From Candidatus Heimdallarchaeum aukensis (GTDB lineage Archaea > Asgardarchaeota > Heimdallarchaeia > Heimdallarchaeales > Heimdallarchaeaceae): DNA of 64,000 bases. A program made the translations under genes and the position numbers. The notes under the pieces were generated by a model. That model was not told the origin of the DNA. It was given only the letters and a program-made list of their open reading frames with translations, and did no database searches. Positions 4,771-24,932 of the stretch are shown here, in pieces. The stretch spans positions 1,440,001 through 1,504,000 of the forward strand of contig CP084166.1 in the NCBI GenBank assembly GCA_021513695.1. Direction: 5' to 3'. How positions within the stretch are numbered: the stretch's first letter is position 1; the number at the start of each line of letters is the position of its first letter.

Positions 4771-5856
4771 CTAGGCAAATGGTCTTTCTCTTAATAGGGC
4801 ACGAAGTAATTCCAAATTTGTTTGTATTTTAGGTGAATTGATGGGTAAATTTTCATTTTTTATGGAATCAATTATATCATATAATATATATGTTGCAATA
4901 TGGAAATCTATTGTATAACCATCTGGATACATCGATTGGAGGTCTTGTTCTACTCCAATTTCAGTTAGAGTTTTATCATATTCGTATATAAATTTCATAA
5001 CTTTATTTTTTGTTGAAGTAAAAGATTTAGTACTTTTATATTCGGTTATAACATCAAGAGCAAAATAAGCACCAATATCCTCGCATCTATCTCTATTAGC
5101 TTCTATAAATTCTGAATTAAAAACATAAACTTTCACTTTTTCGCAATCTTGTTCAGTTAAACTGGAACGGTCTGAAGATGAATCAATAACCATTTTTAAG
5201 TTAGACTTATGAAAATCACCATGAATAACAGCAGAACCCTTGGATTTTTGTAAAATAGCTAAGGAGGGAACAAGGAGATCAATCAATTCTTGTTCTAGAT
5301 CCTCGTTGTTCAATAAAGAGATCAAAAATAGAATGACCGTTTTATAAGGTTCAACATCAATTTCTTTTGCTCCTATCCCATGAATTAAGGCCAAGGTTTT
5401 TGCTGCGAGTTTTAATGAATCATCTTCTGAAATGTTGCTTTTTACGTCAATCCCTAAACCTGCTTCATAGATAATACACTTGTTTTTTGCACTTTTATAG
5501 ATAATAGGAGGAACTAAAACACAAGGATAGTTTTTCAATGAGGAAGCTAAAATTTCATAATTGCTAATTTCTTTGATATAAGCCTCTTCGTCCTTACTGA
5601 ACTTTACTATTAAATAAACGACATGTTTACCCAATTCAGATTCTAAATTATATGTTACAAAGTGTGTTTTTGAACGAGAGGAACGAAAATCCTGGGAAGT
5701 AACATCAACAATGGATATTTGATGGGGAGTAGCGTTTGTTTCTTTTTCAACAGATTGCTTAAAGTATTCTTTTAAACTCTCTCCAATTATAGTAAGTATT
5801 CTTTTCAGTTTTTCAAAATCTTTTTTATTGTTTGGAGAGTTATTTGCTTTTTGCAT
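4771..5856 (-). CDS. Kinase-like phosphotransferase (APH/choline-kinase fold) family protein
   Basis: Catalytic-loop-like 'VIHGDFHKSNL' (HGD motif), followed by a 'FNSEFIEA' D-x-E-like segment and an upstream beta-strand Lys region 'VYLIVKFSKDEE'. Confidence 0.45.
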   Translation of the reverse strand: MQKANNSPNNKKDFEKLKRILTIIGESLKEYFKQSVEKETNATPHQISIVDVTSQDFRSSRSKTHFVTYNLESELGKHVVYLIVKFSKDEEAYIKEISNYEILASSLKNYPCVLVPPIIYKSAKNKCIIYEAGLGIDVKSNISEDDSLKLAAKTLALIHGIGAKEIDVEPYKTVILFLISLLNNEDLEQELIDLLVPSLAILQKSKGSAVIHGDFHKSNLKMVIDSSSDRSSLTEQDCEKVKVYVFNSEFIEANRDRCEDIGAYFALDVITEYKSTKSFTSTKNKVMKFIYEYDKTLTEIGVEQDLQSMYPDGYTIDFHIATYILYDIIDSIKNENLPINSPKIQTNLELLRALLRERPFA

Positions 5857-5913
5857 TTAATTCAACTTATAGATATAATTCAAACTTATAAAAGCTTTAT
5901 GTGTTTACTATGG

Positions 5914-6300
5914 GGTAGTGTCTAGTTTTTATACCACCTCCTAGGCAAAAAGGAATTAAGGGGTGGGTGTCCAAGGCTCTGGTGGGGGCGAATGAAGTTA
6001 TAATAAAGCATAAAGAGAGTAAGAAAACCAGAGAGATGATCGGAGCCATAAATAGCTCGAATAGAACAGGTACAGTGGAGAACAGAGTGAAACCAACGAT
6101 AGGTCTTAAGACTGGCATTAAAGCGCTCAACATATGACCGTATACCACCACTAACAACAAGATGATTAAGCCCGAGACGAGATAGATAGGATAGAATAGC
6201 AGGAACCAGCATCAGTGACGACGATACGTGGTTTTGAGGCCCAACAGCGGAACCAATAACGAAAAGTTAGTAAGCACTCGAGGACACTACTACCTTTACT
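5914..6300 (-). mobile_element. Truncated copy (left ~385 bp) of the IS6-family element found intact at 54324..55089
   Basis: Begins with the same terminal inverted repeat GGTAGTGTCTAGTTTTT (5914-5930). It is ~75% identical over ~380 bp to 54324-54712. It encodes the transposase C-terminus ('...ERFNASLKTY...YNFIRPHQSL...PRRWYKN*') on the minus strand. There is no right inverted repeat and no target-site duplication, so this is a solo or partial copy. Confidence 0.7.
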
Positions 6301-13604: not shown

Positions 13605-14534
13605 TCATTTCTCTTCTTTCTTTTTGTTTTCATTTTTTATAATTAACAAAATACGTTCCCATATAGAGTCTAGCAATGAGTGAATAACTCTTTGTTGATC
13701 TTGTGTTTCAATAATAGAGATTCGATGTCTATTTGCTTCTTCAACTAGATATCTCTGAATAGTTCGTATTTCCTCAAAAGCATTAATATATCGTTCTGCG
13801 TTTCTTTCTACAACTTTTAACCCCCTCCTCTTGAAACGTTCAAGATGCTCATGCTCATCTTTTAAGTGGAGAAGAAAAAGCATTACATGAGGTTGGGTTA
13901 TTGTTTCTGTTTTAAACAAGTTAGGAGATAAATGGACACCTTCAATAATTGTATTTTCTCTAGAATACATAGCCGATTCAATGATAGCCTCAACACCCAC
14001 AATGACTAATCTACTTTGTTCTTCAAACCCAACAATACTTCTATCTAAAATTGGGTTTATTTCAGGTTTTAAGTACTTATAAGCTTCATATGAGCTCCCA
14101 TATAACTCTGGGACTAGTTTTTTTGAAATACTTTGCCTTAATATCTCTCTTACCATATCAGTTCCAATAATATTTGTTATTTCTAGCCTTCGGGAGAGCA
14201 ATGAGGCAATTGTGCTTTTTCCTATTCCAGGCACTCCAGCTAATAAGATAATAATTGGTTTATATACTCCCTTTTGCTCAAAAGCAATGTATCTCTTAGC
14301 ATATAAAGGATTAAATTTTTCGAGATTATCAATAATTATCTGAGAAAAAGCTTCTTGAGAGAGTGTTTTGTCTGTTTTTCCTACTTGTAATTCGATTTGG
14401 GTTGCTAGTTCATAAGCATTAATTTCATCTAAGCCTATAGCATAAAAAGTACGAGAAAGAATACCCTTAGAAAAAATAGTTTTTCTTCCTGATTTTGTCC
14501 TAAATTTAATAAAGTTAGATGAAGGTTTACTCAT
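13605..14534 (-). CDS. 2-phosphoglycerate kinase family P-loop kinase (paralog 1)
   Basis: 'ILLAGVPGIGKSTIASLL...IIGTDMVREILR' matches the P-loop and downstream motif of archaeal 2-PGK (Methanothermus fervidus type). Confidence 0.7.
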   Translation of the reverse strand: MSKPSSNFIKFRTKSGRKTIFSKGILSRTFYAIGLDEINAYELATQIELQVGKTDKTLSQEAFSQIIIDNLEKFNPLYAKRYIAFEQKGVYKPIIILLAGVPGIGKSTIASLLSRRLEITNIIGTDMVREILRQSISKKLVPELYGSSYEAYKYLKPEINPILDRSIVGFEEQSRLVIVGVEAIIESAMYSRENTIIEGVHLSPNLFKTETITQPHVMLFLLHLKDEHEHLERFKRRGLKVVERNAERYINAFEEIRTIQRYLVEEANRHRISIIETQDQQRVIHSLLDSIWERILLIIKNENKKKEEK

Positions 14535-14677: not shown

Positions 14678-15568
14678 ATGAACTTTGAATCCCCAATATA
14701 CGTGAAGAGAGAGCAAGCAAGTTATTTATTTAGCAGAGGGATTCTGGCTACAAGACTAGAGGTTATAGGTCTTGAGTTTCAACAAGCTTATGAATTATCT
14801 AACAAGATATATCTAAAAATCAAAAAATTATCTGAAAATACAATATCCAAGAATAAATTAGATGAATTTGTTTATGATTCAATTAAAGAAAAATATTCTG
14901 AAAAACTAGCTGAAGAATACTTAACAATCGAAAAATTAAGAGATACAAATATACCTTTGTGGATTGTTATTGCAGGAGCTATTGGAGTGGGAAAAAGTAC
15001 ATTATCAAGGAAAATCGCTTCAGACTTTGGGATTAGGCATGTAATTGGAACAGACATAGTAAGAGATATTTTAAGAAAAACACTATCTAAAGATATTGCT
15101 CCACAGCTGCATTCTCCTTCATATTTAGCTTATAAAACATTAAGACCAATTTATAGTACACGTTACGATGAAGTGATTATTGGTTATGAAAATCATTCAA
15201 AATATGTTAATATTGGAATCGAAGCTCTGTTAAATAGAGCTGCAATGGAAAACATTTCAATAATTATTGAAGGAGAACATTTACTGCCTTCTTTTTTTGA
15301 CAAAGAAACAATAAAAATTTCAAATTTAATCTACATCACTATCTCTTTAGAAAATGAAAAGATGCATTTAGAAAATTTAAGTTCACAGTATTCTAGAGAA
15401 AAAGAAGAGCTAATTAAAAACTTTAAAAATATTCGGAAAATTCATGATTTCCTTGTCCACGAAACAAAAATCAGAAAGTTACCTGTTATCGAAGCTAAAG
15501 ATAAAGATGTGGTACTTGCAAATGTGAGAAAATATATTATTGAAAAAGCTAAAAAGATAGTTTTCTGA
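14678..15568 (+). CDS. 2-phosphoglycerate kinase family P-loop kinase (paralog 2)
   Basis: 'IVIAGAIGVGKSTLSRKIA...VIGTDIVRDILR' parallels paralog 1 along the whole length. Divergently transcribed from it. Confidence 0.7.
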   Translation: MNFESPIYVKREQASYLFSRGILATRLEVIGLEFQQAYELSNKIYLKIKKLSENTISKNKLDEFVYDSIKEKYSEKLAEEYLTIEKLRDTNIPLWIVIAGAIGVGKSTLSRKIASDFGIRHVIGTDIVRDILRKTLSKDIAPQLHSPSYLAYKTLRPIYSTRYDEVIIGYENHSKYVNIGIEALLNRAAMENISIIIEGEHLLPSFFDKETIKISNLIYITISLENEKMHLENLSSQYSREKEELIKNFKNIRKIHDFLVHETKIRKLPVIEAKDKDVVLANVRKYIIEKAKKIVF

Positions 15569-16525: not shown

Positions 16526-17458
16526 ATGGGATATCTATTTATTGTAAACCCTCACTCAAGAAATGATGAAGTCAAAAAGAGATGGCCAATAATAGAAGAT
16601 GAAATTAAAAAAAGAAACTTGGATTATCAAGTAGAATTTACAAAAGGAAGAAGACACGCAACTGAAATAACAAAGGAGCACATAAATGATTTTGACGTTT
16701 TTGTTTCTTGTGGAGGAGATGGAACAGTTAATGAGGTTGTGAATGGTCTAGCTGAAACAAATAAAGTTCTTGGAATGTTACCTTTAGGAAATGGAAATGA
16801 TTACGCTAACTTACTTCACGTTAGGGGTTCATATGTTCAGACCCTTAATATTCTTGAAGAGAACAAAATAGCAGAGTTAAGCCTGGGGGTAGCCACAGCA
16901 GATACAAAACACTATTTTGTTAATATAGCTGAAACAGGAATTACATCAATTATTGCTAAAGCATCATATACAGAATTAAAATGGATAAAAGGATTACCTA
17001 AATATTATATTCTCGGATTGAAGAAAATTTCTAGCTACAAATCTGTCCCAGCTTATATAAAAGTTGACGATTATGAAAGAAAAACTAAACTGATTCTTTG
17101 TGCTGTAGGTCTTGGTTACCGTTTTGGGGGAGGATTTAATGTTTTACCTGGAAATCAACCATATTTTGGTGATTTTCAAGTTTGTATTGCCGGAGATGTT
17201 CCTAAAATAAAATGGTATTGGATGATCAACAAAATAAAAAATGGAACACATGGAAATATTAAAGGTGTAGATATTATAAGAGGTAAGAAAATTGAAATAG
17301 AAACTGAAACACCATTACCTATAGAAGGAGAAGGAGAGGTGTTCAGTGAAAATTCAACCACAGCAAAATTTGAGTTATCACAATCAAAGTTAAAAATCAT
17401 TGTTGGAAAAGAATTCTTAAAAAATAAAATTGAATTCGAAACAAGAAATAAAAAATAA
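16526..17458 (+). CDS. DAGK_cat-family lipid kinase (YegS/diacylglycerol-kinase catalytic domain)
   Basis: 'LFIVNPHSR...FVSCGGDGTVNEVVNGL' matches the GGDGT ATP-binding motif of the DAGK_cat / NAD-kinase-like fold. Confidence 0.7.
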   Translation: MGYLFIVNPHSRNDEVKKRWPIIEDEIKKRNLDYQVEFTKGRRHATEITKEHINDFDVFVSCGGDGTVNEVVNGLAETNKVLGMLPLGNGNDYANLLHVRGSYVQTLNILEENKIAELSLGVATADTKHYFVNIAETGITSIIAKASYTELKWIKGLPKYYILGLKKISSYKSVPAYIKVDDYERKTKLILCAVGLGYRFGGGFNVLPGNQPYFGDFQVCIAGDVPKIKWYWMINKIKNGTHGNIKGVDIIRGKKIEIETETPLPIEGEGEVFSENSTTAKFELSQSKLKIIVGKEFLKNKIEFETRNKK

Positions 17459-17545
17459 AAATATTCAACGATTTTGATTTTTAACAAAGTTTATTTTTCT
17501 AAAATCCCTTAATATTATCAACAACGATACTCTGAGGAAAATTTA

Positions 17546-17998
17546 ATGCACAAGGGGTTTATAACTAAAGAATTAACCAATGATGAAATAAGTCACAAAA
17601 AAATATTCATTAAAGTAGAAGACAGAATTTTGTTTCCTCATGGTATTTTTTTTATTGACTACCTAGACAATTCCTTTGGAGTTTATTTATCCAATAGAGG
17701 ATTTTTAGAAGGATTAGAATCATGGTTTGAAGAATTTCCTTCTTTAAAGAAGGGAGACATTGTTATTATCGCTAAACATAGCTCGGGCTTTTCTTTGAAC
17801 ACAACCTCACCAGTTGTTCAGTCTCAGATTTCTTTGATAATGGAAATGCAAAGAGTACAAATGTTGACTGAAGAGGATATTCTATGTCCAAACTGTTACT
17901 ACTCCTTAGAAAAAGAAAAACTCCCTGAAGATTCTCCTCACTTATTAAAATTAAAATGTGGGCGTTGTGGATTTATTCTTATAAAAACCAAAATTTAA
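17546..17998 (+). CDS. B3-like (DNA-binding pseudobarrel-like) domain protein with C-terminal C4 zinc ribbon, tandem paralog A
   Basis: 150 aa. 'MHKGFITKELTNDEISHKKIFI...RILFP...GFLEGLESWF...GDIVIIAK' (B3/EcoRII-N-like pattern F.K.LT...WF...GD.v.i), then 'CPNCYYSLEKE...CGRCGF'. Confidence 0.45.
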   Translation: MHKGFITKELTNDEISHKKIFIKVEDRILFPHGIFFIDYLDNSFGVYLSNRGFLEGLESWFEEFPSLKKGDIVIIAKHSSGFSLNTTSPVVQSQISLIMEMQRVQMLTEEDILCPNCYYSLEKEKLPEDSPHLLKLKCGRCGFILIKTKI

Positions 17999-18062
17999 CT
18001 TTTAAAAGAAATTTTAGTAGAAAATTATTTAATCAACATCATATTATTGGATATGTTAAACA

Positions 18063-18530
18063 ATGCATGTTGGATTTATCATCCGAGAATTAACCGAGGA
18101 AGAGATTAACCATAAGTGCTTATATGTTTTTGAAAAAGACAGAATACTTTTTCCTAATACAGGAGTTTTATTTTTTGTTGAATCCTATGAAGAGACATAT
18201 GGAGTAAGAATAGATCAAGATGGATTTCTTAGAGGATTAGAAACATGGTTTACAAAATATCCTCATAATCCTGGCGATACGATAATCATCGCAAAAACTT
18301 CTGAAAGTTTTTCTTTAAGTAGTTCTTCTGAGCTCATTCAACAAATTATTGGAGAATCATATGAAAAAGTTCGTGTTGATGAAATGGATGAGAAATCAGA
18401 AGCATGTCCAAATTGTCAATATCAACTAGAAATGGCAGCTAAAAAAGAAGAACGAATCATTTTCAAGTGTGCACGTTGTGGATTTACAATGGTTAGAAAA
18501 ATAAAAGATAATGAAAATGAAGAAGATTAA
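18063..18530 (+). CDS. B3-like domain protein with C-terminal C4 zinc ribbon, tandem paralog B
   Basis: 155 aa. 'MHVGFIIRELTEEEINHK...RILFP...GFLRGLETWF...GDTIIIAK...CPNCQYQLE...CARCGF'. Collinear with paralog A at roughly 45% identity. Confidence 0.45.
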   Translation: MHVGFIIRELTEEEINHKCLYVFEKDRILFPNTGVLFFVESYEETYGVRIDQDGFLRGLETWFTKYPHNPGDTIIIAKTSESFSLSSSSELIQQIIGESYEKVRVDEMDEKSEACPNCQYQLEMAAKKEERIIFKCARCGFTMVRKIKDNENEED

Positions 18531-18540
18531 GTTTTTTATT

Positions 18541-18819
18541 TTAGGTGTAAAAAAACAGTGCACTCCCGATAACTCCTAAAATAAGAATTAAGAAAACTGA
18601 AGTAATAAAGACATTCTTTGCTTTTTCTATTTTCAAGCATCTAGAACATAATAAAAGTTTAACATTTTGCGGCTTTTGAGGAGAAAACATTGCTGAAATA
18701 GCATTTGTTTTCCAATATTCATTAGTGCATGAAGTGCAAATAGGCTTATAACATCTATTACATCTTGTCTCGGCATTGACCTCAGTGTGAATATAACATT
18801 TTTCTTCCATCATTATCAA
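18541..18819 (-). CDS. Small zinc-ribbon membrane protein (92 aa)
   Basis: 'CNRCYKPICTSC' and 'CSRC' form a CxxC...CxxC ribbon, followed by the C-terminal TM segment 'VFITSVFLILILGVIGSALFFY'. Confidence 0.45.
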   Translation of the reverse strand: MIMMEEKCYIHTEVNAETRCNRCYKPICTSCTNEYWKTNAISAMFSPQKPQNVKLLLCSRCLKIEKAKNVFITSVFLILILGVIGSALFFYT

Positions 18820-18999: not shown

Positions 19000-19074
19000 T
19001 GGAGCCCCGGAGGGGAATTGAACCCCTGACCTGCGGATTACGAATCCGACGCTTTACCACTTAGCCACCGAGGC
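19000..19074 (-). tRNA. tRNA-Thr (anticodon CGU), CCA encoded
   Basis: Reverse complement reads GCCTCGG TG GCTA...TCGGA-TTCGTAA-TCCGC...AGGGG-TTCAATT-CCCCT-CCGGGGC-T-CCA. The 7-bp acceptor includes one G-U pair, the T-loop is TTCAATT, and the anticodon loop has U33, CGT and A37. Confidence 0.75.
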
Positions 19075-19238: not shown

Positions 19239-19865
19239 ATGATGGAGGAAATGATACACAATATTTGGATTGCTAAGGATACTGGTGAATGTCTATATCA
19301 TAGAAGATTTAATGATGACATCAACATAGATGAGAATTTAATAACCAGCTTTCTCTCTGCAATTGAAATTTTTGCTCAAAATGTCGATTCTGGCTGTGAA
19401 CAGCTTGAAACAAAAAGGTACAAATTCATCTATGCACAAACAGATAACACTGTCACAGTTGCTTGTATTGACAAAAATGATGATGATACCTATATCAAGA
19501 AAGAAGTAGAAGCAATTCAAAATGAGTTTAAATCCCGTTTCAGTAAAATGTTAGAAAATTGGAATGGAAGAGTAGAGTTATTTAGTACAATGGATGAATT
19601 CGTCGATAAAAGATTATCTTCCTTTAATTCCATTCTTGGTTCGTTTAAGAATAAAAAACTGGAGCTGAATGAGATGATTATTAAGCAAAAACCTAAATTA
19701 AAACTCAGTCCTCAGCAAGAGAAAGTCATATCACTGATCAGATATAAAGGGACAGCCACGTTACAGGACATTTGTAAATGGATGAAATTAACTGAGCCAG
19801 ATGCAGAAATAGCTGCAAAGAGCCTTTTACACAATAATATTATACGTGAGGTTACAGGCGCTTAA
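19239..19865 (+). CDS. Soluble roadblock/longin-like domain protein with C-terminal winged-helix (paralog of the cytoplasmic tail of the 6274..8873 surface protein)
   Basis: 'IWIAKDTGECLY', 'ITSFLSAIEIFAQNV' and '...FKSRFSKMLENWNGRVELFSTMDEF' align with 'VLVVHKDTSSPVY', 'VTGFLQAVSTMAKEI' and '...FEKRFSHVAENWIGSLDEF' of the 7296..8873 segment. The C-terminal 'ISLIRYKGTATLQDICKWMKL...' is wHTH-like. The fold assignment is tentative. Confidence 0.45.
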   Translation: MMEEMIHNIWIAKDTGECLYHRRFNDDINIDENLITSFLSAIEIFAQNVDSGCEQLETKRYKFIYAQTDNTVTVACIDKNDDDTYIKKEVEAIQNEFKSRFSKMLENWNGRVELFSTMDEFVDKRLSSFNSILGSFKNKKLELNEMIIKQKPKLKLSPQQEKVISLIRYKGTATLQDICKWMKLTEPDAEIAAKSLLHNNIIREVTGA

Positions 19866-20129
19866 CTATTTCTTTTTCTCTTTTATTTCCTTCTTTGGTG
19901 AAGAGTTACTCATCCACTCAGGTTCAGTTTGTTTTCCAAATTCTTTATTGAATTCTTGAACTAAAACTCTAGCTTGTTTAGCGGTATTTACTGTCATTAT
20001 TTGTTTTTTATAAACATCTATTCGTTTATTGCAATAGGGACATTGCTTTGTTTTCTGTCCTGTTTTGCAATAAGAGAATTTTCCACAATATCTGTTTGAA
20101 CAACGTACTATTGTATACACACTTTTCAC
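19866..20129 (-). CDS. Small C4 zinc-ribbon protein
   Basis: 'CSNRYCGKFSYCKTGQKTKQCPYCNKR'. Start trimmed to the GTG at 20127-20129 to remove a 79-bp overlap with the well-supported YjbQ gene; the longer ATG start at 20204 cannot be excluded. Confidence 0.4.
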   Translation of the reverse strand: MKSVYTIVRCSNRYCGKFSYCKTGQKTKQCPYCNKRIDVYKKQIMTVNTAKQARVLVQEFNKEFGKQTEPEWMSNSSPKKEIKEKKK

Positions 20130-20539
20130 TGTCCAATGATTGTAACTGCGACTCTTCGATGTCTGCTTCTCACATCTAGACAAATAAAAACTGGTTGTTG
20201 CCATGTTCCTAACTGTAACCGTGAATTATGAATAGATAAAGATAAACTTGGACCAATTAAACTTGCTCTTAAGTGTGAATGAGCGTTTGAATCAATCATG
20301 TCGTGTTTATATCCCGCACCTTTTGGGACTAGTTTCTCTAATATCTGTTTAAAGTCACTTAGTACTCTTGATTCATACTCTATCGTAGTTAAAGCTCCCG
20401 TAGAACCTATTACATTTGCAGACAAAATACCATTCTTTATTTTTGATTTAGAAACAAGATCTTCAAACATTGAAGTTAGATCTACAATAGTTATTTCTCC
20501 TTTTGTATCAAATTCTAGTATTTCAGAATAGACATTCAT
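20126..20539 (-). CDS. YjbQ/UPF0047 family protein (secondary thiamine-phosphate synthase-like)
   Basis: '...DSNAHSHLRASLIGPSLSLSIHNSRLQLGTWQQPVFICLDVRSRHRRVAVTIIGQ' is the conserved YjbQ C-terminal signature (H..H..a.l.G, LGTWQ). Confidence 0.75.
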   Translation of the reverse strand: MNVYSEILEFDTKGEITIVDLTSMFEDLVSKSKIKNGILSANVIGSTGALTTIEYESRVLSDFKQILEKLVPKGAGYKHDMIDSNAHSHLRASLIGPSLSLSIHNSRLQLGTWQQPVFICLDVRSRHRRVAVTIIGQ

Positions 20540-20579: not shown

Positions 20580-22931
20580 TTGGTTTTAATTAAAAGATTG
20601 ATTTTTTTCAAAAATCGTAAAAATGTTTATTATCTTTCATACGTAAATAAATTGGATAATATGGTAATACAAGAAGAGAGTAAGGACATCATAGAAGACT
20701 CACCTTTTAACCGCCTTGTTCTTGCAGAAATGGAGAGAGAACGACTTTACTCTACATTTGCTTTAGTTGACGAATTTAATGAAATTGCGTCTTCATGGTT
20801 AGAATTTTCAGATTTTTGTGCAAAATCATTATTTAATTTAACAAATTTATCATTTCTTCTCTATGAGCGGTATCTTGATGAATTTAATAGAGATAAGCAA
20901 CAAATAGAGATAAATTTTGAACGTAAAAGCTTCATTATTAAGAGAATAGAAAATCTGCAACAATTCCAAATGGAAGCAGCTATTTTAATGATTCTCTATG
21001 CAGATATTGTTAACACAGGCATTTTTGAGTCTAAACCTGCAGAAAATTTTTGTTATTTAAACATTGAAGGATATAAGGTTCTTGAGAAAATCTCTTCTAC
21101 ATATTTCGATTCTACTCATCCCAGGGCCTCATCAATTGAAGATATTATGGTAAAGTTATTTACAATAAGTCAAAAAGTCCAAATTGTGAAGATACTAAAT
21201 GATTCGCCAATTAAAAAAGCAAAAGAACCATCTTTTATTCAAGAACAACTTGAGTTGGAAAGATTATTAGCAAGTTTTGAGTTTGATTTTATTGCTAAGT
21301 TAATAGAAGAACTCGGAAAAAGATGGTGGTGGTATGACCCAATTGCAATACATTTTAGCTATGAAAGAGCAATGAAACACTTAGAAAAATCTCTTTCCCT
21401 TTTAGAACATAGTGAGGAAAATGTTCTACAAATTAAAGAAGAAATTAAAAATAAGATCTCAACAATAGATAAAATTTGGAGAAATAAAGCACTAATTGAT
21501 CACTTTTATAGAATCACATTAGAAGCAGCTAAAAAAGACAACTTTGTTGCAAGCATCGAATACCTAAACTTAATTTTAGGATTAATCGATGAAATCATTG
21601 AATATTTTCAAAACAATAATGAACATTTAGAAAGCGAAGAACAATTTTATGAAGAAATAGAAGAACGTAAAAACGATTTAAAAGTTTTTCATATTGTTGT
21701 CAGACTAGCTCTTTCTGTAGCTGAAATCATAAACAAACAAACCTCAATAGATAAAGCATTGTTAGAAAAAAAACTTACAGAAATAGAAAAAATATGCAAA
21801 GATTCTTCATTGTTTTCCAATATAAATTACTTCTCTGAAATTATTTATGTTTATCAAGGCTTTGTTCAAACAGCTAGAATTGGTATACTGAAGAAACAAA
21901 AAACAGAGAAAATCTTGAATAATGCAATAGCACAATTTGAATACTATATAGTCAAACTTGAGAATAGTTTAACAAAAATTGCTAATGATTTTTATAAGAA
22001 AGTCCATAAAGGGACGCTAAAAAGTACTGATTTTAAAAATTACTTAAAAAAGATTGAAGAGTTAAAGTACATCAGTTTCTTTTTACCTAACTTAGAACAA
22101 AAACTCAATCTTACACGAGAAATAGAGTCAATGGAATGTTATATTAAATCAATAGCTGCATTAAAACAGTCACAATCCCAAGAGTTGTCTGAAATTGAAA
22201 AACTCATCTATTATTCGAAAGCACACTATTTCTCAAATAAAGCTTTAGATTTGTCTCAAAGTAAGGAAAAAGCCATAATTCCTGACAATTGGCTTGAAGA
22301 GCAGTTCCTTAAAACTTTCACTGAAGGGAGAGAAGTCGAGTTAAAACTTTTTGAATTATCACGTCAATTTCTTTTTCTAAATAAAGTAATAGATGAAATT
22401 GCTTATTGCTTTGACATTTCAGAAAAAAAGAAAGAAAAAATTGAAAATTATGAGACAGTTCTTCAATTTCACTTTAGAAAATTTGAACTCTTTGAAATCA
22501 TTAACAAACAGATAGAAGAAAATTGTTTAGAATCCCTGAAATACAGAGAAATATCAAATGATATTGTAATTGTAGATAAAAACGTCAATTGGCAAATTAT
22601 TGAAGCTAAAAAAATATTGGCATCTTCAGCAGACAAATTAATCAAAGCACTTAAAAAATGCGCCCTTGGTTATGCAGCAGATAGAAGTAAAGACAACTAT
22701 AAAGCAGCTGTTTTATTTAATGAAGGTTATAAGCTGGTTCAGGAAGCATGTAATATTTTAGACCCACTAACTACATATGACAAACAATTTGCTGATTTGG
22801 CAAAAACAACTTACGAATTCAATTTGTTTCTAAAGGAACTTGAACGTTTGGAACTTGAGAAGAAAAAAATAAAAGAATTTCCTCTAGAAAAAGTGTTGTC
22901 TCTAGTTAAGAAAATAATTTTCTTTTCGTAA
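20580..22931 (+). CDS. Large (~755-783 aa) predicted all-alpha hypothetical protein
   Basis: Long uninterrupted ORF with an E/K-rich helical composition and no recognisable catalytic motif. The likely start is the ATG at 20661 ('MVIQEESKD'). Confidence 0.55.
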   Translation: MVLIKRLIFFKNRKNVYYLSYVNKLDNMVIQEESKDIIEDSPFNRLVLAEMERERLYSTFALVDEFNEIASSWLEFSDFCAKSLFNLTNLSFLLYERYLDEFNRDKQQIEINFERKSFIIKRIENLQQFQMEAAILMILYADIVNTGIFESKPAENFCYLNIEGYKVLEKISSTYFDSTHPRASSIEDIMVKLFTISQKVQIVKILNDSPIKKAKEPSFIQEQLELERLLASFEFDFIAKLIEELGKRWWWYDPIAIHFSYERAMKHLEKSLSLLEHSEENVLQIKEEIKNKISTIDKIWRNKALIDHFYRITLEAAKKDNFVASIEYLNLILGLIDEIIEYFQNNNEHLESEEQFYEEIEERKNDLKVFHIVVRLALSVAEIINKQTSIDKALLEKKLTEIEKICKDSSLFSNINYFSEIIYVYQGFVQTARIGILKKQKTEKILNNAIAQFEYYIVKLENSLTKIANDFYKKVHKGTLKSTDFKNYLKKIEELKYISFFLPNLEQKLNLTREIESMECYIKSIAALKQSQSQELSEIEKLIYYSKAHYFSNKALDLSQSKEKAIIPDNWLEEQFLKTFTEGREVELKLFELSRQFLFLNKVIDEIAYCFDISEKKKEKIENYETVLQFHFRKFELFEIINKQIEENCLESLKYREISNDIVIVDKNVNWQIIEAKKILASSADKLIKALKKCALGYAADRSKDNYKAAVLFNEGYKLVQEACNILDPLTTYDKQFADLAKTTYEFNLFLKELERLELEKKKIKEFPLEKVLSLVKKIIFFS

Positions 22932-24266: not shown

Positions 24267-24932
24267 ATGGTCGCTAAAGATCAACTTGATAAGGAAGATA
24301 GAATAAAAAAGGGAGTAGAAGAGATTCTAAGCTTCAGAGGATATGAAATTAAAAAAATAAATACAGATGATGATTATATTGATTTTTACGCTGAAAAAAC
24401 TGATGAAGACGGAGAAGAAACAAATTTAATTGTCAGATTTCCTAGAAAAGCGAGCATAGGAGTAAAAACAATAAGAGAACTTGATCAATATAGAAAAGAT
24501 GAAGATATTCAAGATGCAATAATTATAGCAGAAGGAGCTTTAACTCACTATGCAAAAAGAGAATGTTTAGAACGAGGAGTGGAAATAATAAGTGGAACAA
24601 ATCCCCTTTTTAATATCTTTGATCACATAATGGTTCCACTTCATATAAAACTTGAAGATGATGAAGTTGAAGAAGTTTTAAAGAAATATCAAATAAAGAA
24701 GCATCAATTGCCAAAGATCCTAGACTCAGACCCTGCGATTAAAGCTATTCAAGCAAACCCAGGAGATATAATAAAGATAATTAGAAACCCAAACATGGGA
24801 GAAGCAGGAGTATATTATCGATATGTTATCAGATCTACATCAAGATTAAGGCTAGCAGCAAAAACTCAACGCTCCTCTTTAGAAGAAGAAGTTGTAGAAG
24901 ACATAGAAGAAGATATAGAAGAAGAACTTTAG
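24267..24932 (+). CDS. rpoH: DNA-directed RNA polymerase subunit H (Rpb5 homolog), full-length eukaryote-like form with N-terminal Rpb5 'jaw' domain
   Basis: C-terminal 'LKKYQIKKHQLPKILDSDPAIKAIQANPGDIIKIIRNPNMGEAGVYYRYVI' is canonical RpoH/Rpb5-C. The N-terminal ~130 aa align with the eukaryotic Rpb5 N-domain (memory comparison with human RPB5). Acidic tail 'EEEVVEDIEEDIEEEL'. Confidence 0.8.
   Translation: MVAKDQLDKEDRIKKGVEEILSFRGYEIKKINTDDDYIDFYAEKTDEDGEETNLIVRFPRKASIGVKTIRELDQYRKDEDIQDAIIIAEGALTHYAKRECLERGVEIISGTNPLFNIFDHIMVPLHIKLEDDEVEEVLKKYQIKKHQLPKILDSDPAIKAIQANPGDIIKIIRNPNMGEAGVYYRYVIRSTSRLRLAAKTQRSSLEEEVVEDIEEDIEEEL

Follow-up and report, generated by a model that had tools for sequence, protein, structure and literature searches.

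A tandem gene pair in the Heimdallarchaeum aukensis chromosome

Two adjacent genes, A and B, whose products are predicted to combine a B3-like pseudobarrel, a connecting helix and a zinc ribbon, were studied in a 64,000-nucleotide stretch of DNA from Candidatus Heimdallarchaeum aukensis (contig CP084166.1, positions 1,440,001 to 1,504,000; hereafter the window). The G+C content is about 31% across the window. The neighbours considered with the pair were a small convergent membrane protein gene, a lipid kinase gene and a gene designated c2. Gene A (17546..17998, + strand) is an open reading frame (ORF) with an ATG start that encodes 150 amino acids (aa). Gene B (18063..18530, +), also an ORF with an ATG start, encodes 155 aa. 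The spacer between them is 64 bp (17999-18062), so that lengths, strand and spacing are as given in a preliminary description of the window. In A, the pseudobarrel corresponds to aa 1-88 (nt 17546-17809), the connecting helix to aa 89-106 and the C4 zinc ribbon to aa 112-148, with ribbon cysteines Cys114, 117, 138 and 141; B has the same three-part architecture. The isoelectric point (pI) of B is 4.8, while A is less acidic (near-neutral).

End-to-end comparison of A and B by BLASTP revealed 42% identity over 149 aa (E 8e-36), a likeness that, judged by this alignment, is far above chance. The paralogy recognized earlier therefore stands, although the identity is lower than the roughly 45% then quoted; the shared motifs MH(K/V)GFI, RILFP, GFL.GLE(S/T)WF, GD..IIAK and CPNC...C(G/A)RCGF are all present. 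The product of B matches a Ca. Heimdallarchaeum aukensis protein at 100% identity, and that of A shares 88% identity with a Ca. H. endolithica protein. In the comparison of H. aukensis with H. endolithica, the ratio of nonsynonymous to synonymous substitution rates (dN/dS) was 0.047 for A, 0.064 for B and 0.076 for the small convergent gene. These low values indicate that all three are real genes under purifying selection.

Residues M1, H2 and G4 are identical in 30 of the 30 distinct family sequences compared (window positions 17546-17560 in A and 18063-18077 in B), and residue 5 is Phe in all of these (Leu in one fragment, P0012). The invariant histidine at position 2 lies within a barrel strand. 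At the other end of the protein, CPNC (114-117) and C-x-R-C (138-141) are invariant throughout the family members. The model of A described below and the alignments both agree with a C4 zinc ribbon, with two CxxC knuckles about 20 residues apart and a three-stranded sheet (120-123, 132-138 and 144-148). Searches of Pfam and NCBIfam with the family C-terminus returned only sub-threshold matches to named ribbon families.

The N-terminal domain is predicted to adopt a B3-like fold

An AlphaFold2 model of A was built on an 11-sequence family alignment. Its mean predicted local distance difference test score (pLDDT) was 84.9, with residues 11-80 at 90-96. Residues 1-88 follow the order beta-helix-beta-helix-beta-beta-beta-helix-beta-beta; past residue 88 the chain forms an 18-residue helix (89-106) and then the three-stranded ribbon. 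The modelled barrel is an open seven-stranded pseudobarrel with two helices that can be superimposed on solved B3 domains. The figures given for solved B3-like domains in the fold comparison were 9.8 for RAV1, 9.4 for VRN1, 9.1 for the LlaJI.R1 N-domain, 9.0 for BfiI-C, 8.8 for At1g16640, 8.6 for NgoAVII, 7.0 for UbaLAI, and 6.9 and 6.6 for EcoRII-N.

The structure prediction thus supports, at the level of fold, the B3-like pseudobarrel suggested in the preliminary description. On this model, the assignment of the A and B barrels to B3 holds at fold level only, and no sequence method placed the barrels in any of the curated sequence families of this kind (PF02362 B3, EcoRII-N and similar). The domain might instead be a swapped-hairpin barrel of the AbrB/MazE/MraZ type; AbrB-like domains did not give the best structural and sequence match, and we give this alternative very little credence. 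The barrel-helix-ribbon architecture and the family that it defines are, in our judgement, very probably correct.

The family is restricted to Heimdallarchaeota

Single-sequence searches of 5.8 billion proteins returned five matches per query. When 1.84 billion cluster representatives were searched exhaustively with a profile, nine matches were obtained. Five were members of the family or fragments of them, two were multi-ribbon proteins unrelated to it and two were remote relatives of the N-terminal domain. Among outside proteins, residues 48-131 of P0017 matched the family profile in a single weak match (E 1.7e-5, 1.84 billion proteins). P0017 is a 444-aa McrB homologue (NCBIfam McrB 8e-57; Pfam AAA_5), and its gene overlaps an McrC gene. 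A search with a profile of the N-terminal domain yielded 38 protein matches (138-172 aa, plus two fragments) of the same architecture; every one with an organism name was from Heimdallarchaeota, and annotation was nearly always absent or 'hypothetical'. A scan of one genome per GTDB species revealed 22 loci, all in metagenome-assembled genomes of Heimdallarchaeota or Promethearchaeati, AB_125 included. On the sequences covered by these searches the family occurs only in Heimdallarchaeota, in 26 distinct genomes. Full-text literature searches on B3 domains and on archaeal pseudobarrels, Asgard archaea included, found no earlier account of the family, of its barrel-helix-ribbon architecture or of any B3-type domain in Asgard archaea.

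All ORFs of 28 loci and of the window were searched with a hidden Markov model (HMM). Two copies were present in just four genomes, all of the Heimdallarchaeum lineage (the window, L007, L001/2 and L005/6; L numbers designate our loci), and the other 21 loci were single-copy. In the 24 other loci that were fetched, one copy was seen within about 6 kb, with confirmation by hmmsearch for 21. The B copy of L005/6 has the opposite orientation and converges on A. A neighbour-joining tree placed the A copies of the four genomes in one clade and the B copies in another. Identities were 67-88% among A copies, 66-90% among B copies, 40-47% between A and B, and about 45-47% between either copy and the single-copy forms. 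The separate clades and these identities indicate that the duplication predates the split of the four genomes. B has the same insertion-deletion states as the single-copy orthologs; in A, 2 residues are deleted after FP and 3 are inserted in the ribbon. As judged from these comparisons, a single copy is the ancestral state and both A and B have been retained after an old duplication. The tandem duplication noticed at the outset is real, yet it is old and confined to one genus-level lineage, the gene being single-copy elsewhere. Clades of the gene tree agree with synteny groups.

The family gene lies in conserved housekeeping synteny

Examination of gene neighbourhoods revealed that the family gene lies in a conserved chromosomal housekeeping synteny and not in a defence island. 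Together with the distribution, this is what came of the taxonomic and gene-neighbourhood checks advised earlier: a family confined to Heimdallarchaeota in a conserved housekeeping setting. In many genomes the upstream block consists of genes for an LPG-synthase-like membrane protein, a metallophosphoesterase, an IFT52-GIFT-like protein, a Gtr1/RagA-Arf-like GTPase and a DAGK/YegS kinase. The downstream block consists of c2, UPF0047/YjbQ, DUF1922, a protein of about 755 aa that has no Pfam or NCBIfam match, BpsA_C, an OapC-like protein and a two-domain Rpb5-like subunit. On the upstream side the window also carries genes for Phe-tRNA synthetase subunits, two 2-phosphoglycerate-kinase-like genes and a gene for an ARMT1-like phosphatase. 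No nuclease, methyltransferase, helicase or AAA+ gene was found near the family gene in any of 33 loci, and no McrC gene was found around the pair in the window or in the related loci. PADLOC produced no match for A, the small membrane protein, c2 or the kinase, and for B only weak matches to the zinc-ribbon region of Cas12. An origin of the locus as a defence island or mobile element was rejected on the synteny and the PADLOC results.

The most tightly linked neighbour is c2 (19239..19865, +; 208 aa in the window), a conserved downstream gene whose product has an acidic longin-like N-domain and a basic winged-helix-like C-domain. The c2 proteins are 206-214 aa long over the loci, with a mean column identity of 74% across Heimdallarchaeota. 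Among the 21 single-copy loci analysed, 20 have the gene directly downstream on the same strand, with a gap of 38-142 bp, and in L008 it is adjacent and divergent. Adjacency persists in loci where the kinase is displaced (L013, L016, L022, L025, L027 and L015). In the window and in L007 the small membrane protein gene and a tRNA-Thr gene separate B from c2. The tRNA-Thr(CGT) gene of the window (19000..19074, -; found by ARAGORN) lies between the small membrane protein gene and c2, and a tRNA-Ser(TGA) gene (5827-5916, +) separates c2 from the family gene in L008; the family gene-c2 pair is thus interrupted at tRNA genes.

Recurrent sub-threshold matches of c2 were to Longin, Fuz_longin and Sybindin at the N-terminus and to winged helices of the MarR, HTH_9 and DeoR types at the C-terminus. 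The N-domain has a pI of 4.6 and the C-domain, the C-terminal third of the protein, a pI of 9.67. Comparison of the c2 profile with PDB sequences gave no match. A single-sequence AlphaFold2 model of c2 was unusable, with a pLDDT of 42.9; its order, beta-beta-alpha-beta-beta-beta-alpha, is a faint hint of a longin or roadblock fold. Its tight linkage to the family gene makes c2 worth study, and we regard it as a candidate partner of the family protein.

The DAGK/YegS-type lipid kinase of the window (16526..17458, +; 310 aa; Pfam DAGK_cat 1.6e-24, YegS_C 9.5e-18) is encoded directly upstream of the family gene in most loci and is displaced in L013/16/22/25/27, L015 and L008. In many single-copy loci the GTPase gene lies two genes upstream of the family gene, with the kinase gene in between. 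This GTPase (407-414 aa; L010:3469-4713, +, with equivalents elsewhere; Pfam 5.6e-18 and 1.5e-17) is not encoded near the pair in the window. Wherever both were seen, the GTPase gene adjoins the kinase gene, and the two invert as one unit. Beside the GTPase gene in 16 loci is a gene for a 677-aa protein with a match to IFT52 GIFT (1.5e-6; L010:1275-3311, -).

The small convergent gene (18541..18819, -) is an ORF of 92 aa counted from a TTG, with an in-frame Met two or three codons in. Its product is a zinc-finger membrane protein with a B-box-like Cys/His pattern (sub-threshold Pfam matches, E about 0.01). The third, opposite-strand gene, earlier described as Cys-rich with a C-terminal transmembrane helix, proved to be a real gene by its dN/dS, and the hydrophobic helix is conserved in 5 loci. 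The gene is confined to the duplicated Heimdallarchaeum lineage (five loci), and its L005 copy lies beside the ARMT1-like gene, about 4.3 kb from A, which marks it as a positional neighbour and not a partner. A functional link of A and B to this gene was rejected since its position is not conserved in L005.

Other genes of the window were noted. The Rpb5/subunit H homologue (24267-24932, +; 221 aa) has an extra N-terminal domain that is kept in 15 related Heimdallarchaeota loci; this domain matches Mrr_cat (1.6e-8), NA-iREase1 and, weakly, Rpb5_N, and resembles that of eukaryote-style two-domain Rpb5. A 783-aa protein (20580-22931, +) found in 17 related loci has no Pfam or NCBIfam match. The 2-phosphoglycerate kinase-like genes (13605-14534, -, and 14678-15568, +) are divergent paralogs with NCBIfam matches of 5e-77 and 1e-70, below the equivalog cut-off. 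As listed, the DUF1922 and UPF0047/YjbQ ORFs (19866-20204, -, and 20126-20539, -) overlap by 79 nt, and the true DUF1922 start is probably downstream of the first ATG.

Inspection of upstream sequences revealed a TATA-like, A/T-rich box, TTTATTTTTCTA (17490..17501, +), 45-56 nt upstream of A. The box is near-identical in the regions upstream of A in L001 and L007, and from its sequence we infer that it serves as a promoter element. A Shine-Dalgarno-like GAGG motif lies immediately 5' of the A ATG. The upstream regions of family genes showed just A/T-rich B recognition element (BRE)/TATA-like boxes, T-tracts and Shine-Dalgarno-like GGAG or GGTG motifs. One clade has a perfect inverted repeat, AGAGATAA-N4-TTATCTCT, about 70 nt upstream of the family gene, at about 5925-5945 in L010 and at the same place in L018, L020, L021 and L023. 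It could be a terminator of the kinase gene or an operator.

A domesticated DNA reader as a tentative explanation

We tentatively propose that a restriction-type DNA reader was domesticated in this family and that its members now serve as small DNA-associated regulators or cofactors. The barrel would derive from the DNA-recognition module of McrB/LlaJI-type restriction GTPases and would then have been domesticated as a chromosomal gene. No recognizable catalytic domain was found in the family proteins. Since the arms are short, nearly uncharged and variable, contacts of the B3 cleft with duplex DNA would probably be weak or of low specificity. The conserved zinc ribbon and helix would dock onto a conserved partner, for which c2 or the basal transcription machinery are candidates, or drive dimerization. 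In Heimdallarchaeum, near-neutral A and acidic B may form a heterodimer or may have split ancestral roles between them (subfunctionalization).

DNA binding by the family barrel is inferred from the modelled fold and from what is known of related domains. B3-like domains with known function all bind DNA (PMC3973309, PMC5934628). The solved DNA complexes of B3-like domains all show the major groove gripped by an N-arm and a C-arm in a positively charged cleft (PMC3973309, PMC5934628). McrB homologues recognize DNA through their N-terminal domain, which in LlaJI.R1 is a B3 domain (PMC7680126). The nearest outside relative of the family barrel, that of P0017, sits at this DNA-reader position, which favours binding.

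A series of results weighs against the proposed explanation. Searches of Pfam and NCBIfam with residues 1-100 gave no match at E<=1, and comparison of the family profile with PDB sequences found no B3 domain. An hhalign comparison with a plant B3 alignment reached a probability of 6% and aligned just G-x-x-x-F...L-x-x-GD-x-V, and the McrB-fused relative P0017 itself had no match to 6c5d, the structure of the LlaJI.R1 domain, by sequence. The family barrel is acidic, with a pI of 4.7-6.7 (one exception at 7.9) and a net charge of -8 to +1; the corresponding pI is 9.4-9.9 for RAV1, TEM1 and NGA1 and 8.0 for VAL1, and the median pI of the window proteins is 6.4. The two nearest outside relatives have a pI of 9.5 and carry NRI(L/R)RG in the C-arm strand. 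The family has lost this motif and has N-Q-I-T-G or G-F-L-(E/R)-G at its site. Both arms are present, with a summed charge of -3 to +4 and a median of 0 (A 0, B -2), compared with +2 for VAL1, +5 for RAV1, +4 for P0015 and +8 for P0017. The position of the clamp arginine is occupied by H, Y, R or F. Among 22 single-copy orthologs the arms are the most variable parts, with a mean column entropy of 1.85 in the N-arm and 1.64 at the C-arm tip, and the zinc ribbon, many non-cysteine residues included, is the most conserved at 0.47. The strongest constraint thus acts on the ribbon and helix and not on the presumed reading heads, which on these alignments is the reverse of the pattern expected for a conserved sequence-specific reader. 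No operator was identified when the regions upstream of family genes were compared, and adjacency to c2 is broken in L001/L005 and, through inversion, in L033.

Known domains provide some guidance on how charge and arm length are to be read. VAL1-B3, with an arm charge close to that of the family, already binds poorly in vitro and requires low pH or added positive charge (PMC5934628). The family C-arm hairpin is about 7 residues shorter than that of RAV1 or VAL1 by motif alignment; P0017 is also short-armed, so the shortness of the C-arm alone is no argument against binding. VRN1-B3, in which the C-arm is shortened, binds DNA non-specifically (PMC3973309). The family barrel may no longer bind DNA in the usual way.

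The main rival to a domesticated DNA reader is a barrel that does not bind DNA and serves as an acidic protein-interaction module or as a DNA mimic for a basic partner. The ribbon would then be the main functional surface, and the protein would act as an adaptor within a cassette that also includes c2 and, often, the Rag/Arf-like GTPase and the DAGK/YegS kinase. Such a role would account for the acidity of the barrel and the loss of the NRI(L/R)RG arginines of the basic outside relatives, and for uncharged arms (median 0) that vary most while the ribbon and helix, non-cysteine surface residues included, are the most conserved; the basic c2 C-domain (pI 9.67) could engage an acidic partner, and a Gtr1/RagA-Arf-like GTPase is encoded nearby in many single-copy loci. 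Many genuine DNA-binding proteins are acidic overall, the median pI in the window is itself just 6.4, and in some single-copy members the arms reach +3 to +4, comparable to VAL1 or P0015. All B3-like domains of known function, moreover, bind DNA (PMC3973309, PMC5934628). On balance we find a barrel without DNA binding somewhat unlikely. A role in RNA binding, or as an accessory factor of RNA polymerase or the ribosome, with the ribbon docking and the barrel contacting RNA or single-stranded nucleic acid, would fit the likeness of the ribbon to TFIIS/TFS/Rpb9, RpoP or ribosomal proteins. These similarities are generic to C4 ribbons and all sub-threshold, the synteny with the Rpb5-like gene covers about 6 kb and several unrelated genes, and we know of no B3-fold protein that binds RNA; we consider such a role improbable.

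The suggestion, also made in the preliminary description, that the proteins are the specificity module of a nucleic-acid-targeting system is contradicted by the absence of nuclease or NTPase genes nearby, by PADLOC and by the housekeeping synteny. In its remaining form it would make the family the specificity subunit of a defence system, restriction-like or otherwise directed at nucleic acids, with its effector encoded at another locus. Restriction enzymes do provide both the fold and the nearest relatives, and specificity modules that diversify typically have variable reading arms. Defence genes tend to be mobile and patchily distributed. The family gene is single-copy, keeps its order among housekeeping genes, has clades that match synteny and a dN/dS of about 0.05; none of the 33 loci has a nuclease, methyltransferase, helicase or AAA+ gene near it, and PADLOC found nothing beyond trivial ribbon matches. 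A defence role is, in our view, very improbable.

If the family is instead a domesticated DNA reader, a bolder extension may be considered. Heimdallarchaeota are an archaeal group widely regarded as the closest to eukaryotes. A restriction DNA reader fixed as a Heimdallarchaeota core gene, together with c2 and often the Rag/Arf-like GTPase and DAGK-type kinase, could form a cassette leading from a eukaryote-style GTPase/lipid signal to transcription. This is speculative and we think it will quite probably prove wrong; if true, it would parallel, as a separate event, the way in which plant B3 transcription factors arose. DNA binding as such, if true, would make the family a new type of transcription or chromatin factor for Asgard archaea and a clean case of a domesticated restriction-module reader. 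If the barrel does not bind DNA, it would be a natural charge-inverted B3 scaffold put to other use. The practical stakes are modest, the family being small, limited to one lineage and without a phenotype.

Comparison with known B3-type systems

The pseudobarrels of B3 type have two known settings, plant transcription factors and the modules with which bacterial restriction enzymes recognize DNA. The route by which the fold moved between these settings remains a matter of debate (PMC3973309). In Asgard archaea it is somewhat unexpected. The closest likenesses of the family are the N-terminal B3 domain of LlaJI.R1 (a McrB-like GTPase; PDB 6c5d) and the plant B3 domains. A and B differ from LlaJI.R1 in lacking an AAA+ GTPase and an McrC partner and in carrying a helix and a zinc ribbon instead; they are acidic and not basic, and are encoded by chromosomal core genes and not in a restriction cassette. 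No direct sequence similarity of A or B to 6c5d was detectable. Fusion to a McrB GTPase encoded beside McrC, as in LlaJI.R1, is absent from A and B and present in P0017, and it is through P0017 (the single weak match, E 1.7e-5) that the family barrel is linked to the N-domain of McrB homologues.

The plant B3 domains (FUS3, RAV1, VAL1, LEC2, VRN1; PF02362) have no significant sequence relationship to the family, the pI of the family barrel being about 5 compared with 8-10, and the plant proteins have no C-terminal zinc ribbon. The occurrence in Heimdallarchaeota is no evidence that the family is ancestral to plant B3. VRN1-B3 and At1g16640-B3, whose DNA binding is non-specific or unknown, also belong to plant proteins without a zinc ribbon, and the family C-arm is shorter still. 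Compared with the type IIE/IIS enzymes EcoRII, BfiI, NgoAVII and UbaLAI, A and B have neither a nuclease domain nor a methyltransferase gene nearby. The B3-like domains of restriction endonucleases are fused to nucleases of the PD-(D/E)XK or phospholipase-D type and recognize 5-6 bp sites through long, conserved arms (PMC3973309), whereas A and B have no nuclease and the family arms are short and variable. Nor do A and B correspond to a defence system of PADLOC-DB, for which a match to a protein model goes together with location in a defence island; their context is housekeeping. The architecture, the taxon and the chromosomal core-gene status of the family are new, and the family represents a third setting for the B3 fold, that of a non-enzymatic, conserved chromosomal protein of one archaeal phylum.

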